Part shown: positions 11,087-50,282 of the stretch, in pieces
How the letters are laid out: each line of letters starts with the position of its first letter
Numbering within the stretch: position 1 is the stretch's first letter
Origin: Octopus vulgaris
Taxonomy: Eukaryota
Reading direction: 5' to 3'
Length of the DNA stretch: 64,000 bases
Assembly: GCA_951406725.2 (NCBI GenBank)
Contig: OX597833.1
Location: forward strand, 4,774,001 to 4,838,000
Made by a program: the position numbers and the translations under genes
The notes under the pieces: model-generated
Database searches by the model: none
Told to the model about the DNA's origin: nothing
Seen by the model: the letters and a program-made list of their open reading frames with translations, nothing else

Positions 11087-11645
11087 GCAATCCAACGAAG
11101 CTACACGAAGAAGATAGCCTCTGTGCACCATATAAGCTACTGGGAAAGACTCAAGAGATTAAGACTCTATTCCTTAGAGCGTAGGCGAGAAAGATATGCC
11201 ATAATATACATCTGGAAAATTCTAGAAGGACTTGTCCCAAACTTTGGCATCGAGAGTTACACAAATGCCAGAACTGGGTGCCACTGCGTGGTGCCAAGGA
11301 CTCCAAATTTGCCATCAAGATGTAGGACAAGATACTGTGATAGCCTGGGCTTCCGAGGCCCACAGCTCTTCAATATCCTCCCGAAGAACCTAAGAGACCT
11401 GCATGGGGTGGATGCAGATGTCTTTAAAATAAAACTGGATCTCTTCTTGTCAGGTGTCCCAGATGAACCAACTTCACGGCAGGAGGTGCAGATGAGGGCA
11501 GCTGCATCGAACTCTCTCATGCACCAAATGGCAGTTGCTAAAAAGCATTCGTGAAGTAAAATCATGTAGCAACACCAAATGGCGGTGCCCCAGCATGGTC
11601 ACAGCTCGTGAGCTGAAACTAGATAAATAAATAAATAAATAAAAA
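11087..11645 (+). mobile_element. 5'-truncated CR1-type LINE (ORF2 C-terminus, 3'UTR, (TAAA)n tail)
   Basis: SYWERLKRLRLYSLERRRERY...FNILP...FKIKLD motifs; stop at 11554; tail GGCGGTGCCCCAGCATGG..CAGCTCGTGAGCTGAAAC. Confidence 0.88.
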
Positions 11646-12229
11646 ATATCAGAGAATGTGAGGCGTGAACCACTGCCTTCATATTACTGTCTTTATTCTT
11701 TATATTTGTGTAGCATTACTGTTCCTATTCCGTATTCAGAAGCTACAACAATCTCCGCTGCAGGATCAAAATGAACCAGTGACAAATCCAATATTAATAT
11801 TTTTTTAATATTGTCAAACGCTTCTTGACAATTATTTGACCAATTCCTCTTCACATCCATTTTTAACAAATTATTTAGTGGAGCTCTCAATTCATGCATA
11901 TTTGGTATATAATTTTGATAATAATAATAATTTGCTAGACCTAAAAAGCTTGTAAGGTTGTTATATTAGTCAAAGGAGGCATATTTTTAGATGCATCTGC
12001 CCTCGACGGGTACAGTCGTCGTCCATTCCTGTCAATATTTTGTCCAAAATACTTAACTTTAGGTTAGAAAATTTCATGTTTTTTCTCAATCAGTGGAAAC
12101 CATAGTCTCTTATTTTCCCCAAAACACATTTTACATGCTTGAGATGCTGATCATGAGATTCACTTTTAATTAATATATCATCCAGGTATGGAATTGCAAA
12201 TTCACAGTCTGCTAACATTGTCTCCATAA

Positions 12230-19570: not shown

Positions 19571-19860
19571 ATGCATGTGTGTGTGTGTGTAGACATGCCT
19601 GTACTCTAAAATAGTGGTCTACTCAATATACAAAGCAAATATCGATGTGAAAGAAATAAAGTTTTTTTGATTATAGATGTTTTTTGCACAATGATACACC
19701 ATGTGTAACTTGAAAATACATATTCTGAGAGAACACTACATTAAAATCTCTAATGAGAAAACCAAATTTGTCAAATGTGAATCAGAGCCAGGGCTTATGA
19801 CTAACATTCCCTGTGTGATCAATTAGTCTTTATACATTTTTAATTATTCATATTAATCAT

Positions 19861-20651
19861 TTAACTGTGGTGTGAATTCCATGACTGTATGTCACTATTC
19901 AAATCGACAATTTCCCTGCTTTTAGGATTCTCCTCCTCACTATTTTCAGAACTGTCTTTCACACTATTTTTAGGGCTCTCTTCCAGGAGCCTTTCAGAAT
20001 TGTCCTCCACACTTATATCAGAACTGTCCCCAACTTTAATATCAGAACCGTCAACAAGTTTGGTCTCAAAAATGCTCTCCAGTCTGTTCTCTAAACCATC
20101 TTCCAGTCTACTTTCAAAAGTGTCGTCTGATTTACTCTCAGAACTGTCTTCCAATTTGCTTTCAGAGCTATCCTCCAAAATGCTCTCAAAATTGTTCTTC
20201 ATTTGACTCTCAAAATTGTCCTCTAACCTACTCTCAAAACTGTCATCTATTTGACTCTCAGAACTTTCTCCAAATATTCTCTCAAAACTGTCCTCCATTT
20301 GACTCTCAGAACTGTCTTTTAGTTGACTCTCAGAACTGTCCTCCAGTTGACTCTCAAAACTGTCCTCCAGTTGACTCTCAGAGCTGTCATCCAATCTGTT
20401 CTCAGAACTGTCCTCCAGTCGGATATCAGTGCTGTTCTCCATTCCAATATCAAAACTGTTCATTTTGTCTTCTGTCTCTCTGGAATCCAAAGCGTTTCCA
20501 ATTTTCAAAGATCCATTTTCGGTTTGCTTTGGATCTTCCTCCAAAATTTCAGTAAGGTTAATGTTTGATATATTGGTGCTTACCAATATTTCTGAAACAT
20601 TCAAGGTCCAAGGTGCTCCTTGGAATTCTTCAGGACTTATTCTTCCATCTC
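19861..20651 (-). CDS. Secreted EF-hand / acidic-repeat protein, coding exon 3 (terminal)
   Basis: Pyrimidine-rich acceptor ...TTTTGTCATACCTAG, phase 1; completes DKNG|DGRISPEEF; open for 262 further codons to TAA at 19861. Confidence 0.88.
19942..20421 (-). repeat. Coding 24-nt tandem repeat, about 20 x [RQK]LEDS[SF]ES
   Basis: Unit ACTCTCAGAACTGTCCTCCAGTTG (plus strand); frame preserved throughout. Confidence 0.9.
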
Positions 20652-20953
20652 CTAGGTATGACAAAAGAAAAAAAGAGAGAAAAAAATATTAATTTTGTTA
20701 CAATTAAGGGTCACAGCAACATGTAATGTTTTAGTTAAGGGTCACAACAACAGGATTTTCATTGAATTGATATGTGTGGTTGTGTGATTGAGAAGCTGGC
20801 TTCTCAGGTTCAATCCCACAGTCCAGCATCTTGGGTGAATATTCTCTGCTATAACCCCAGGCCAACAAAATCCTGTGAGTGAATTTGATAGGTAGAAACT
20901 GAAAGAAGTCCATTGTATACATACATACATACATACATACATACATACATACA

Positions 20954-21004
<51 letters not shown>

Positions 21005-21005
<1 letters not shown>

Positions 21006-21362
21006 GGTGTGGGAGTCGCTGTGTAGTAAGAAGATTGATTCCCAACCACATGGTTCCTGGTTCAGTCCCACTGTGTGGCATCTTGGGCAAGTCTCTTATA
21101 CTATAGCCTTGAACCGACCAAAGCCTTGTGAGTGAATATGGTAGACGGAAACCAAAAGAAGCCCATAGTATATGTATATGTTTGTGTGTCTGTGTTTGTC
21201 CCTCCATCACTGCTTGACAACCAGTGTTGGTGCGTTTACATGACCGTAACTTAGCAGTTTGGCAATAAGTACCAGGCTTACAAGTCCTGGGGTTGATTTG
21301 TTCAACTAAAGGCAGTGCTCCAGCATGACCATAGACAAATGACTGAAACAAGTAAAAGAATA
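21005..21362 (+). mobile_element. SINE family A
   Basis: Head, body and tail homologous to other copies. Confidence 0.85.
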
Positions 21363-21428
21363 GAATATATATATATAACATATATAAAATGTAAGCTGAC
21401 TAAGGGATAAAAAATCTGTATATACTAT

Positions 21429-21815
21429 TCATCATCATCATCATCGTTTAATGTCCGTTTTCCATGCTAGCATGGGTTGGACGGTTCGACCGGGGATCTG
21501 GGAAGCCAGAAGGCTGCATCAGGCTCCAGTCTGATCTGGCAGTGTTTCTACAGCTGGATGTCCTTCCTAGTGCCAACCACTCCGTGAGTGAAGTGGGTGC
21601 TTTTTATGTGCCACCGGCACAGGTGCCAGACGAGGCTGGTAACGGCCATGATCAGATTGGTGCATTTTATGTGCCACCGGCACAGGTGCCAGACGAGGCT
21701 GGTAACGGCCATGATCAGATTGGTGCATTTTATGTGCCACCGGCACAGAAGCCAGTCAAGGCTGCGCTGGCATCGGCCACAATTCGGATGGTGCTTTTTA
21801 TGTGCCACCGGCATG
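21429..21815 (-). mobile_element. Family B element with unit array
   Basis: Core, (CAT)n on the plus strand, four GTGCCACCGGCA motifs. Confidence 0.85.
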
Positions 21816-22261
21816 GTACTATTAGAAGCATATAATCTACCATCATGGGGCTAACGAAGTCTGTAGGTAAGGGAGTGAACTAGTACTGGTCTAGGGAGCA
21901 AAAAACTTTTTGAAGGGTAATTTCAATATAAAGGGGGAACCAGGATGTTTTGAAAGTTATGAAAAGAAACTGGCAGAATCGTTAGCGTGTTGGGAAAAAT
22001 GCTTAGCGGCATTTCCACTGTCTTTACGTTCTAAGTTCAAATTCCTCCGAGGTTGACTTTGTCTTTCATTCTCTCAGGGTTGATAAATTAAGTACCAGTT
22101 GCATACTGGGGCCGATCTAATCGACTAGCTCCCTCCCCACAAATTTTGGGCCTTATGCCTAGAGTAGTAAAAAAAAAAAATTAAAATCAGGGAGGAAGAA
22201 AACCTGTCTGCAAATTTTTTTGTTTTTAGTTCTGCCACTGCTATCAAATTCACTCACAGGT

Positions 22262-22740
22262 GGTGAAGCTTGTGTTTTTCTCTGTTTAAGGACCCCTGCA
22301 TTAAGGGCCAATATGGTTGATGAGGGGATAACACCTGTTTGGTTGTGTGAACCGTTTTATCTGGTTTTACAAGTCGTAATTTTATATTTAATATCTTCTC
22401 TGGCGAAATATCTTAGTGCGGTCATTGATATAAGCCTCCTCATCACACAAAATATACACTCCTGCTGTTGTTGTTGTTGCTGTTATTGTTGTTGGTGAAG
22501 CTTGTGGTTTTTCTCTGTTTAGGACCTGCAGGCCAATATGGTTGATGAGGGATAACGATACCCTTTTGGTTGTGTGAACAGTTTTATCTGATTTTACAAG
22601 TCGTAATTTTATATTTAATATCTTCTCTGGTGAAATATCATAGAGCCATCATTGATATAAGCCTCCTCATCACATGGAATAACACACTCCTGCTGTTGTT
22701 GTTGTTGTTGCATCATTGTTGTTGGTGTTGTGGCTGCTGT
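22262..22740. repeat. Direct tandem duplication, ~235 bp x2, in EF-hand gene intron
   Basis: GGTGAAGCTTGTG...GATATAAGCCTCCTCATCACA...CTCCTGCTGTTG occurs twice. Confidence 0.85.
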
Positions 22741-22861
22741 TTAAGGCCATCTCTGATCCAACTGACTTATGATCAACGACAATCCACCGATGACCATCTC
22801 ATTTTATTTTCAAACAGAACGTCTAGAACTATGTTATTCACTGTGTTCTTCCATGTTTAAG

Positions 22862-22913
<52 letters not shown>

Positions 22914-23254
22914 GCTTTCCATGCTAGCATGCAAGCATGGGTTGGACGATTTGACTGAGGGCTGGCGAACCAGATGGCTGCACCAGGCTTCAATCTTGAT
23001 CTGGTAGAGTTTCTACAGCTGGATGCCCTTCCAAAGGCCAACCACTCCGTAAGTTAGCTGCTATTTCTAGCAGACTGAGAGACCACGCAAAGACATCCAC
23101 ATTTTTGCTGTTGTCCAATTCCTTGTTGTTGTTGCTGTTGTTGGATCTTTTAACAAAAGCAGTGAAGAAGGAGTGTCAGTAGAGTATATAAGTACGTACT
23201 CCACCAGGTCAATGGCTCTTCAACACACTGGTCAAAGATAAGGTTTCAAGGGAC

Positions 23255-23902
23255 GCCCAGTGCGTCCATGCTGCCAACAAAGCACGCGGAGTTCTGTTCT
23301 TGACTCGACGGTCATTCGGAATGCTCACAGCAGCCATATTCCTACCACTCTATGTCACGCTGGTGAGACCCATATTGGAGTACGGGATTCAAGCCTATTC
23401 TCCTTATCTCCTCAAAGACATACAGCATCTCGAAAGAGTCCAGAAGCTGGCTACCCGCATGGTTCATGGTCTCAAGCATTTGTCTTATGAAGAAAGGCTG
23501 AAGACACTCGACCTTTATTCTCTAGAAAAGCGACGACGCCGTGGTGATCTCATTCTCGCTCACAACATCATAAGCGGAAAGTGTAACCTCTCGAAAGTGC
23601 TGTTCTTCACTCCTGCTCCAGAGCGTTGGCTGCGGGGTCACTCCGAAAAGCTCTATCTGCGACGATTTCATCTCAATCGAAGGAGAGGGGCTTTCTCCGT
23701 CCGGGTTGCGGATCCGTAGAATAAGCTACCAGATGAGATGGTGAAGATGCCGACAACCGCTCGGTTCAAAGTCTCCCTTGACCTCAAGTGGCCTGAACTC
23801 TTTACATGAACACCACCCTGTACATAACTCCATGTCCCCCTACATGACCTTGCTTTTTGCTCTTTGAGCCAAAAAATTAACTAACTAACTAACTAACTAA
23901 CT
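23255..23902 (+). mobile_element. 5'-truncated CR1 LINE (second family), (TAAC)n tail
   Basis: LYVTLVRPILEYG..LERVQKLATRMV..LSYEERL..LYSLEKRRRRGDLI..RGH; second copy at 45300-45552 (-). Confidence 0.9.
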
Positions 23903-24009
23903 AAGGGTTAGTCTGAAGAACCTGCAACGAATAGAAACCCTACTTTTAGGGTCCACACAGTCACAAAGTAAGGTCCACTTGTTTGGGAAAATACCTGACA
24001 AGAACTTAC

Positions 24010-24220
24010 CATTTTTATCTGCATCTTTAAAAGCTTCCTTAGCGTTCCGTCTTGCACCAGTTGTTTTAATTAATTCCTGCAGACTAATGAAATTATCGTT
24101 AATATTGTTGTCATAGCGTGAGAAGTCCTCAGGAAGAGGCACCGGTCTAAATTCTTCACTGTCCTTTTTGGGGTTCACCAGGAATTGTTTGACAGCTTTG
24201 GGGTCCTTTATTGTTTCAAT
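24010..24220 (-). CDS. Secreted EF-hand protein, coding exon 2
   Basis: Acceptor TTTTGGTCTCTTACAG (phase 0), donor G|GTAAGT (phase 1); FSRYDNNINDNFISLQEL (EF-like loop) and AFKDADKNG (start of canonical EF loop). Confidence 0.9.
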
Positions 24221-24382
24221 CTGTAAGAGACCAAAACGAGAAATAAGCACTTTTTTCATATTTTTATATAAAATCAGAGAGGAGGGGTGGGGTGGGGGCA
24301 ATGTTATTAATCTTTGAAGATGTTACATGATTAACAAGACTGATGATTGATGTAGTTACTGTTAATAATAATAATGATGATG

Positions 24383-24444
<62 letters not shown>

Positions 24445-24479
24445 GATGACGACAACGATGATAATAATAATAATTATTA

Positions 24480-24830
24480 TCCGTTCGTGGCCGTTGCCAG
24501 TCTCGCCTGGCCCCCGTGCCAGTGGCACGTAAAAAGCACCATCCGTTTGTGGCCATTGCCAGCCTCGCCTGGCCCCCGTGCCGGTGGCACATAAAAAGCA
24601 CCATCCAACCGTGGCCGTTTGCCAGCTCCATTGGCACCTGTGCGGGTGGCACGTAAAAAGCACCCACTACACTCACGGAGTGGTTGGCGTTAGGAAGGGC
24701 ATCCAGCTGTAGAAACACTGCCAGATAAGACTAGGCCTGATGCAGCCTTCTGGCTTCCCAGACCCCAGTCGAACCGTCCAACCCATGATAGCATGGAAAG
24801 CGGACGCTAAACGATGATGATGATGATGAT
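24480..24830 (+). mobile_element. Family B element (3 units)
   Basis: Core and (GAT)n tail. Confidence 0.85.
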
Positions 24831-25190
24831 GAATAATGACAATAAAAATGGTTTAAAAATTTTTCACAAGGCCAGTAGGTTTGGGGGAGGGGATAAATCA
24901 ATTACATTGACCCCAGTATACAACTGGTACTTATGTTACCTTTATTTTTGCTGAAATACACTGCATGTGTTTTAATTAATTTTTAAAATAACGAAGACTT
25001 TAGTAAAATAACCGTATCGTTATTAAAACTGGTATTTTGAACATAGATTAACATGAAAGTTTAATTAAAAGTTTTAATTTAAATCATCTTTAAATATAAA
25101 GAAACAAATTTGCATCACAGAACCAGGGGCAATTACTGGTGAGTTGGTCTCAAAGAGACTAAAGAAATGACTAGACTGAGTTGTATTAAA

Positions 25191-25226
<36 letters not shown>

Positions 25227-25227
25227 T

Positions 25228-25281
<54 letters not shown>

Positions 25282-25389
25282 TTTCTCCTCCTCCTCCTCC
25301 TACTGCTACTTCTTTTTCTACTACTACTACTACTACTACTTCTTCTTCTTCTTCTCCTCCTCCTCCTACTACTACTGCTACTTCTTCTT

Positions 25390-25450
<61 letters not shown>

Positions 25451-25598
25451 CACCACCACCACCACCTCTTCTTCTACTTCCTTCTTCTTCTTTCCTCTTC
25501 TTCAATGGTAGCACAGTCTTTCCCCATCCCCAGTTTCCCAAGAGATTCCCAAGAGTTAAAAGGAAAACCGAATCCATTCTTGAAAACTCGTTACCAAC

Positions 25599-25718
25599 CT
25601 TCACAGACTCAGCTTTGTCGTCTCCCTTGAAACGTGGAACTTTGAGGGGTCGCTGCCATGATAGACTTATCCATATTAGACAAAAGTAGCACACCAGCAT
25701 TGAGTGATGCCGTACCAT
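25599..25718 (-). CDS. Secreted EF-hand protein, coding exon 1 (signal peptide)
   Basis: Acceptor TTAATTTCAG at 25726-25725; AAAATGG start; hydrophobic MLVCYFCLIWISLSW; phase-0 donor AAG|GTTGGT matches the phase-0 acceptor of exon 2. Confidence 0.8.
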
Positions 25719-25789
25719 TTTTGGCTGAAATTAACAGAAAATTAAGAGAAGATTAAGAGAAATCCTTAGAAATTCTGTGGGAACTGTGG

Positions 25790-50056: not shown

Positions 50057-50282
50057 CTTACAGGATATCTTTACTACACGGATTAAGGAAATAATACTTG
50101 TTCTGTGACGTGGTTTTAAACAGAGATTAAAGATTAAGGATTATTTATGATACATTATCTCCGTCAGTTAATTAACCGACTCGAGTTGAGATTCAAAGGA
50201 ACAACAACAACGGCAACAGTAAATATCTTGGATAACTGAGATAAATAATGGTTTTTGGAGGTTTATCCGGGATTTGCTGGTT
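50057..50282 (-). other. Candidate exon of an unidentified minus-strand transcript
   Basis: Strong acceptor GTTTTGTTTTTGTTTTTTTCCAG; possible donor AAG|GTTTGT; frame 0 reads NQQIPDKPPKTIIYLSYPRYLLLPLLLFL*. Confidence 0.4.

Follow-up and report, generated by a model that had tools for sequence, protein, structure and literature searches.

In a 64,000-nucleotide stretch of the Octopus vulgaris genome (assembly GCA_951406725.2, contig OX597833.1, positions 4,774,001 to 4,838,000; hereafter the window, in whose positions all coordinates are given), the minus strand carries a three-exon gene for a protein of 373 amino acids (aa) that combines a predicted signal peptide, a pair of EF-hands, a linker rich in N-glycosylation sequons, and a long acidic, serine-rich tail of octapeptide repeats. 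By sequence comparison, the EF-hand head belongs to an old, unnamed lophotrochozoan family of compact EF-hand pairs, in which acidity of the regions flanking the pair is, as judged from composition, an old and recurrent trait. The tail grew by expansion of a 24-nt unit, and is found in this Ser-rich, periodic form only in Octopus.

Coding exon 1 (25599..25725) is preceded by an AG acceptor just 5' of 25725, seven nucleotides before the ATG at 25718, so that its coding part spans 120 nt (25718-25599). Exon 2 (24010..24220; 211 nt, phase 0/1) encodes an F-x-P-[VI]-P-x-P-x-x-F motif, EF-hand 1, and the start of EF-hand 2; exon 3 (19861..20651; 791 nt) encodes the end of the EF pair, an APW motif, the linker, the acidic tail, and the stop codon TAA, and is followed by a 3' untranslated region (UTR; 19600..19860) covered by contigs (X3 record 23, X13 record 9) up to the edge of the stretch mapped. 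The first-pass annotation of this DNA had proposed a phase-compatible, three-exon frame of 373 residues. The exon borders carry GT donors and AG acceptors with intron phases 0 and 1, the product is 373 aa plus stop, and contigs join the exons exactly: X3 record 23 (1462 nt) and X13 record 10 (680 nt) run unbroken over all three exons, skipping both introns and spanning the proposed junctions 25599/24220 and 24010/20651. The contigs derive from sequencing runs labelled 'RNA?' (the label is a guess) that bear no tissue labels; among the four runs mapped, X3 and X13 span all three exons, X2 covers them in pieces, and X1 covers little, with the matching of X2 record 22 also ending at the exon 1 borders. 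Only a spliced source can yield contigs free of both introns. A retrocopy was rejected as the origin of these contigs, since a genome search with exon 2 and with the array found this locus alone for each. Exon 3 is read by the X3 and X13 contigs through the repeat into the 3' UTR, with no splice before the array. A further exon 5' of exon 1 is indicated by X2 record 22 and X3 record 23, which stop matching at 25725 with 17 and 33 nt to spare. No local paralogue was found in the window or in the 40 kb on each side, and four listed sequencing runs contained next to none of the gene's sequence words, which proves nothing.

EF loop 1 (24074..24112, residues 77-89) has 13 residues owing to a one-residue insertion, while loop 2 (24019-24010 plus 20651-20626, residues 108-119) is a canonical 12-residue loop split by intron 2 and followed in exon 3 by FQGAPW (20625-20608). 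That a canonical loop is assembled across the intron, as first proposed, is borne out by the Pfam EF-hand_1 model (PF00036), which scores 33.4 bits on the joined protein against a cut-off of 25.4 and reaches only E 0.04 on exon 2 alone. Loop 1 had been called atypical: its 13 residues are present, but they are not a peculiarity of this protein, being shared by 12 of the 19 family rows described below. An AlphaFold 2 (AF2) model built on the 19-sequence alignment places residues 71-120 at a predicted local distance difference test (pLDDT) score of 86-96, with helices and short strands, and adds an N-terminal helix at 5-20; the tail lies mostly at pLDDT 40-50, with one helix (245-280) near 68. 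The model from the single sequence was poor (pLDDT 50). Matches in the PDB are to EF-hand proteins only, the top Foldseek row being a troponin C lobe (root-mean-square deviation 2.1 Å, a weak E of 0.038). A charge-hydropathy test labels even the EF core disordered and so does not discriminate.

The family is defined by a 65-residue core: an F-x-P-[VI]-P lead-in, two EF loops, a TGA-x-x-N linker, and an APW end, with a spacing of 19 residues from the last Glu of loop 1 to the first Asp of loop 2 that is identical in 19 of 19 rows. Named members span nemerteans (Lineus XP_064632684.1, Tubulanus XP_074645780.1), an annelid (Owenia CAH1791922.1 and CAH1790718.1), a brachiopod (Lingula XP_013404774.1), gastropods (Haliotis XP_046578364.1 and XP_067684800.1), and bivalves (Mytilus coruscus CAC5413487.1, Mercenaria XP_045165624.1). 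Relatives were gathered by a phmmer scan of 1.84 billion representatives, whose matches were mostly generic multi-EF-hand proteins; 15 relatives with one or two long match stretches were chosen by inspection among the top 150 of 1096 matches, a view in which the family is undersampled and in which no named member from squid or cuttlefish appeared. Nineteen rows were analysed once near-duplicates (nine cluster mates of P0016, P0164, and the O. sinensis model) had been removed, both Haliotis rows remaining. With a profile of the core, 29 of the 265 proteins scored reach 93-108 bits and the next one 44, the Octopus protein itself being at 107-108; the profile is partly circular, as it takes in exon 2 of this gene, and the non-seed rows P0119, P0165, and P0263 score 96-103. 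Profile searching otherwise yielded mostly multi-EF-hand proteins and one new family member, P0263. Word-index protein searches returned three Octopus proteins only (3 of 67 candidates; 0 of 1 in a second search), and ESM Atlas matches, all below 0.9, include Mollusca-only clusters of 133-145 aa at 0.85 that serve as leads only. As genome queries, P0016 and P0046 gave one match each, exon 2 of this gene. In a phylogenetic tree, Octopus groups with P0016 at 85/78, the rest being mostly unresolved. The proposal of an older two-EF-hand protein family is thus upheld by the spliced contigs, the phmmer relatives, and the named members together.

The array of the tail (19942..20421) comprises 20 in-frame 24-nt units with the consensus x-L-E-D-S-[S/F]-E-S and degenerate units on both sides; units match the consensus at 14-23 of 24 positions, the autocorrelation reaches 0.69 at lag 24, compared with 0.16-0.38 at off-period lags, and Tandem Repeats Finder reports 17.7 copies at 70%, in agreement with the roughly 20 frame-preserved repeats noted at first. 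Over residues 126-373, Ser makes up 21%, Glu 17%, and Asp 11%, the net charge being -49, and the predicted isoelectric point (pI) is about 4.3. The observation that many units keep S-x-E is right for 11 of 20 units in O. vulgaris and 14 of 20 in O. bimaculoides, and leaves nine of the 20 here without the motif; the alternation between S and F is a single C-to-T change at codon 6 that is itself polymorphic. Compared with O. vulgaris, the O. bimaculoides tail contains an additional 8-aa unit and lacks a 4-aa piece, and the last 27 residues are identical. Elsewhere in the genome, a 62-bp match of 80% to the array (G000:C10:107477808-107477869, in L018) is probably due to chance or to another acidic repeat.

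Among the 19 rows, the Ser-rich array is confined to Octopus: Ser outside the core makes up 19% there against 2-13% in the 17 other rows, S-x-E motifs number 15-18 against 0-4, and none of the 17 shows periodicity or Ser content of this kind. In these rows the array is not a tail common to all molluscan relatives, and its origin as a lineage-specific minisatellite expansion stands. The same cannot be said of the acidity, which the first-pass annotation had taken for a new gain: Asp plus Glu account for 22-40% of residues outside the core in 11 of the 17 non-Octopus rows (eight of the nine named ones, nemerteans included), with the acidic region preceding the core in Haliotis and following it in Mytilus and Tubulanus; P0016, the nearest relative, carries a 295-aa Glu-rich tail with 32% D+E and three S-x-E. 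The N-terminal segments of P0016 and Octopus are related (score 52 against 23±4 for shuffled sequences), whereas the tails are not (89 against 91±12). On the question, raised at first, of whether molluscan orthologues end just after APW, three of the four named molluscs do end within 14 aa of the core, as do 8 of the 17 relatives within 18 aa. Given that acidic flanks of unrelated sequence recur in the family, before or after the core, the Octopus tail is more probably a remodelled version of an acidic tail already present than a new gain, although the order of events (rebuilding or independent gains) we only infer, the tree being weak.

Variation within and between Octopus species separates the two parts of the protein. 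Against the window, the seven listed changes of X13 in exons 1-2 are all synonymous (six of six in exon 2), while 8 of 11 in the tail replace residues (Fisher p 0.004), giving the tail a ratio of nonsynonymous to synonymous polymorphism (pN/pS) of 0.94 from 11 allelic changes. The O. sinensis protein has no difference in residues 41-152 and eight in 153-373. The head is under strong purifying selection. In the array, codon positions 1 and 2 of D4/E7 have changed in 4 of 80 cases and those of S5/S8 in 14 of 80 (p 0.02, the units not being independent); these data favour selection on the frame and the acidic residues of the tail. Selection for S-x-E as kinase sites is not shown, with the motif kept in 11 of 20 units, acids kept better than serines, and a tail pN/pS of about 0.9. 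As a separate observation, run X2 contains two exon 2 haplotypes over 24059-24158 that differ at third codon positions only, the second being common to X3 and X13, and exon 2 is the more divergent at synonymous sites, at 0.105 against 0.016 for the tail (Fisher p 0.005); these haplotypes are possibly an old shared polymorphism or a product of mixed samples. A-to-I editing was rejected as their source, the differences running in both directions and all falling at third positions.

We tentatively favour, at a little short of even confidence, a reading in which the product is a secreted, calcium-binding polyanion of secretions or extracellular matrix, and not a dedicated mineral template. Loop 2 would bind Ca2+ specifically, and perhaps the 13-residue loop 1 as well; the mostly disordered tail of the structural model would bind Ca2+ at low affinity and high capacity, supplying bulk charge such that charge and frame would outweigh individual sites; and S-x-E serines, possibly phosphorylated by Fam20C, would add to that charge. 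Since acidic tails are common in the relatives, the protein would likely soak up calcium in secretions.

Several points weigh against this reading. The tree leaves 10 of its 16 inner branches open, and the non-cephalopod rows may be functionally different paralogues; acidity is not obligatory, an acidic flank being absent from 6 of the 17 relatives (12-18% D+E); and the listed X13 differences amount to six of seven in exon 2, one of three in exon 1, and 15 of 17 in exon 3. S-x-E occurs 15 times against 8.8 in shuffles (p 0.009, again with units not independent), an excess that arises because one motif-bearing unit was amplified. Finally, pN/pS among paralogous units is about 0.45 and no stop is present where a crude count would expect about 4.5, which implies some residue-level constraint in the tail. 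These last values also bear on a rival that we consider quite improbable, that the EF head alone is functional and the tail is a tolerated in-frame minisatellite without a function of its own. Such a tail would fit the near-neutral allelic pN/pS, the unit number that varies between species, and the relatives that end close to the core; it would not account for a frame kept over 20 diverged units free of stops, the lower pN/pS among units, the preferential keeping of D4 and E7, the identical last 27 residues in O. vulgaris and O. bimaculoides, or the independent keeping of a long acidic tail in P0016.

Several features suggest that the N-terminal hydrophobic stretch directs the protein into the secretory pathway. 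Hydropathy (mean Kyte-Doolittle value of 2.64 over residues 8-17) and the AF2 helix at 5-20 agree on a predicted signal peptide of about residues 1-21 (25656..25718), as claimed at first. A similar stretch opens 17 of the 19 family rows, and longer cluster mates exist for the other two; the 373-aa protein has neither a KDEL/HDEL end nor an internal transmembrane stretch. The five sequons noted earlier are located at residues 128, 137, 142, 156, and 183 of the linker (20434..20601), which may be N-glycosylated, and four of the five are kept in O. bimaculoides. In exon 1, at 25623-25637, a furin-type site, R-F-K-R, follows the signal peptide in O. bimaculoides; in O. vulgaris, its last Arg is replaced by Gly.

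Features of this kind would also suit a granin- or calsequestrin-like store of Ca2+ in the granule lumen, one that condenses with Ca2+ late in the secretory pathway of neurons or gland cells and leaves the cell only when granule content is released. The protein is acidic, probably disordered, and without a transmembrane stretch, its N-terminus is signal-like, dibasic or R-x-K-R sites lie in residues 16-70 of 8 of the 19 rows (O. bimaculoides included), the family occurs in animals with and without mineral, and phosphorylation by Fam20C promotes the Ca2+-driven phase separation of calsequestrin-1 (PMC9496343). We nonetheless regard a granule store as unlikely: R-x-K-R has been lost in O. vulgaris, there is no retention signal, and several relatives are only 112-144 aa long and have no acidic region.

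Phosphorylation of the tail is plausible, given that the genome holds two Fam20-family kinase loci (PF06702, over cut-off; G000:C5:20815603-20818796 and G000:C1:56296364-56319917, candidates for Fam20C or Fam20B) and that 15 S-x-E motifs lie in the tail of a predicted secretory protein; with all 15 serines phosphorylated, the tail charge would be about -79. By analogy with Starmaker and OMM-64, the protein could then be a statolith or stylet matrix phosphoprotein, in which the EF pair would hold Ca2+ in place and a tail phosphorylated by Fam20C would govern the growth of CaCO3 or calcium phosphate crystals. The Ser-rich S-x-E tail peculiar to Octopus, the low pI, and the Fam20-family genes speak for such a role, as do several reports: 16 of 46 phosphosites in Lottia shell fit S-x-E or related motifs (PMC4094399), Pinctada nacre is disturbed by fam20C knockdown (PMC5824888), EF-hand domains occur in seven of seven lophotrochozoan mineral proteomes compared (PMC13425148), and Starmaker of the otolith is phosphorylated (PMC9496343). 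S-x-E is not specific to mineral, as about 24% of human secreted phosphoproteins bear it too (PMC4094399). The serines are less conserved than the acids, the tail pN/pS is near 1, and the family occurs in the nemerteans Lineus and Tubulanus, which are not known to have mineralised parts. Neither the family accessions nor the exact motif were found in three shell-proteome supplements, a weak point as the files may hold no sequences. A matrix role thus seems doubtful to us. Rather improbable, too, is the bolder version in which Octopus swapped an ancestral Glu/Asp-rich tail for a kinase-ready phosphoserine array, yielding a convergent Starmaker- or SIBLING-like regulator of statolith or stylet mineral; if true, it would be the first identifiable octopus statolith or stylet matrix protein and give this undescribed family its first function. 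Statolith matrix proteins are barely characterised (PMC6597576), and no statolith-protein paper was matched by statolith-proteome phrases. Supplements of the O. vulgaris skin-mucus and ink proteomes gave no accession or peptide match, the ink list being partial and the mucus content uninspected.

NCBI already holds the protein, as CAI9737196.1 in O. vulgaris (419 aa), XP_036366803.1 in O. sinensis (459 aa), and XP_014771710.1 with three more accessions in O. bimaculoides (377 aa), in all three species under the automatic name dentin sialophosphoprotein(-like). That identity was rejected, the resemblance being compositional only. The O. vulgaris entry (P0001) includes the identical 373 aa, P0002 and P0003 agree at the joins they cover, and the O. 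bimaculoides protein begins at the same Met as the 373-aa model. The 46 extra residues of CAI9737196.1 map to 55987 and 50281-50177, just 3' of a gene for NAD-isocitrate dehydrogenase on the same strand, and contigs from three of the four runs pass unspliced through 50177; the 419-aa model is therefore a probable fusion of 3' exons of that gene with the EF-hand gene. Rare read-through from the upstream gene is a lesser possibility, and the 33 upstream bases of X3 may derive from 50177-50209. The N-terminus of the O. sinensis model resembles long interspersed nuclear element (LINE) fragments in the window. Both the misleading name in the database and the gene model that is probably a fusion are thus corrected here.

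The neighbouring NAD-dependent isocitrate dehydrogenase subunit, presumably gamma-like, has its 3' end on the minus strand of the window (62114-62028, about 56050-55963, and 50282 to about 49910), with more exons in L004 and L005; one exon matches Pfam Iso_dh at E 6.5e-4. Splice signals suggest that 62028 joins a short last coding exon containing Trp and Cys, and then a 3' UTR exon. Retroelement fragments lie at 23192-23716 (+), 11087-11551 (+), and 11696-11965 (-), with LINE-like pieces in intron 2 and downstream and a reverse transcriptase-RNase H-like piece (PF17919) among them. Another gene of low complexity lies nearby, about 39 kb 3' of the EF-hand gene: an open frame of 461 aa (L009:121-1503, minus strand) in which Gln, His, Ser, Tyr, and Asn abound, whose end is hydrophobic, and for which Pfam gives no match.

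EF-hand proteins that are secreted and carry acidic low-complexity regions have been known before, and the Octopus protein partly resembles several acidic or EF-hand proteins. SIBLING proteins such as DSPP and DMP1 carry an RGD integrin motif, and all their introns are in phase 0. Like them, the Octopus protein is predicted to be secreted, acidic, and Ser-rich, with sequons and S-x-E; unlike them, it has an EF-hand pair and a phase 1 intron 2, RGD is absent from all 19 family rows, and the joined protein matches no SIBLING Pfam family at E<=1. Literature searches found no text naming the protein or the family accessions (most subscription papers lay outside the search), and on octopus with dentin sialophosphoprotein they returned unrelated papers only. 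Proteins of the CREC group, resident in the endoplasmic reticulum, carry six or seven EF-hands and end in an HDEL/KDEL-type signal, whereas the Octopus protein has two EF loops and no such C-terminus. EFCBP/PFMG1 of Pinctada, compared by description only, are secreted EF-hand shell proteins. A signal peptide and EF-hands are likewise shared with Hdh-SMP5, whose EF motifs lie, by description, at 36-48, 56-68, and 112-124 in 134 aa (PMC10741955) against 77-89 and 108-119 here, and with Lottia EFCB1/2 (PMC4094399); for none of these shell proteins do the descriptions covered mention a repeat tail. The fish otolith proteins Starmaker, Starmaker-like, and OMM-64 are similarly acidic, probably disordered, and potentially phosphorylated, and the octopus too has mineral in its balance organ; for them, presence in the otolith and an effect on crystals have been demonstrated (PMC9496343), while for the Octopus protein, whose homology to them is not shown, both are hypothetical. 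The other members of its own family, all 'uncharacterized' or automatically named, have aperiodic Asp/Glu flanks or none, and only Octopus has a periodic, Ser-rich octapeptide tail. New, then, are the assignment of this protein to a clearly delimited and apparently undescribed family found in four lophotrochozoan phyla, and the probable turnover of an acidic flank into a Ser-rich repeat in Octopus. With its unique peptides, the protein is also a concrete candidate to look for in proteomic studies of the statolith and stylet, for which few matrix proteins have been described.

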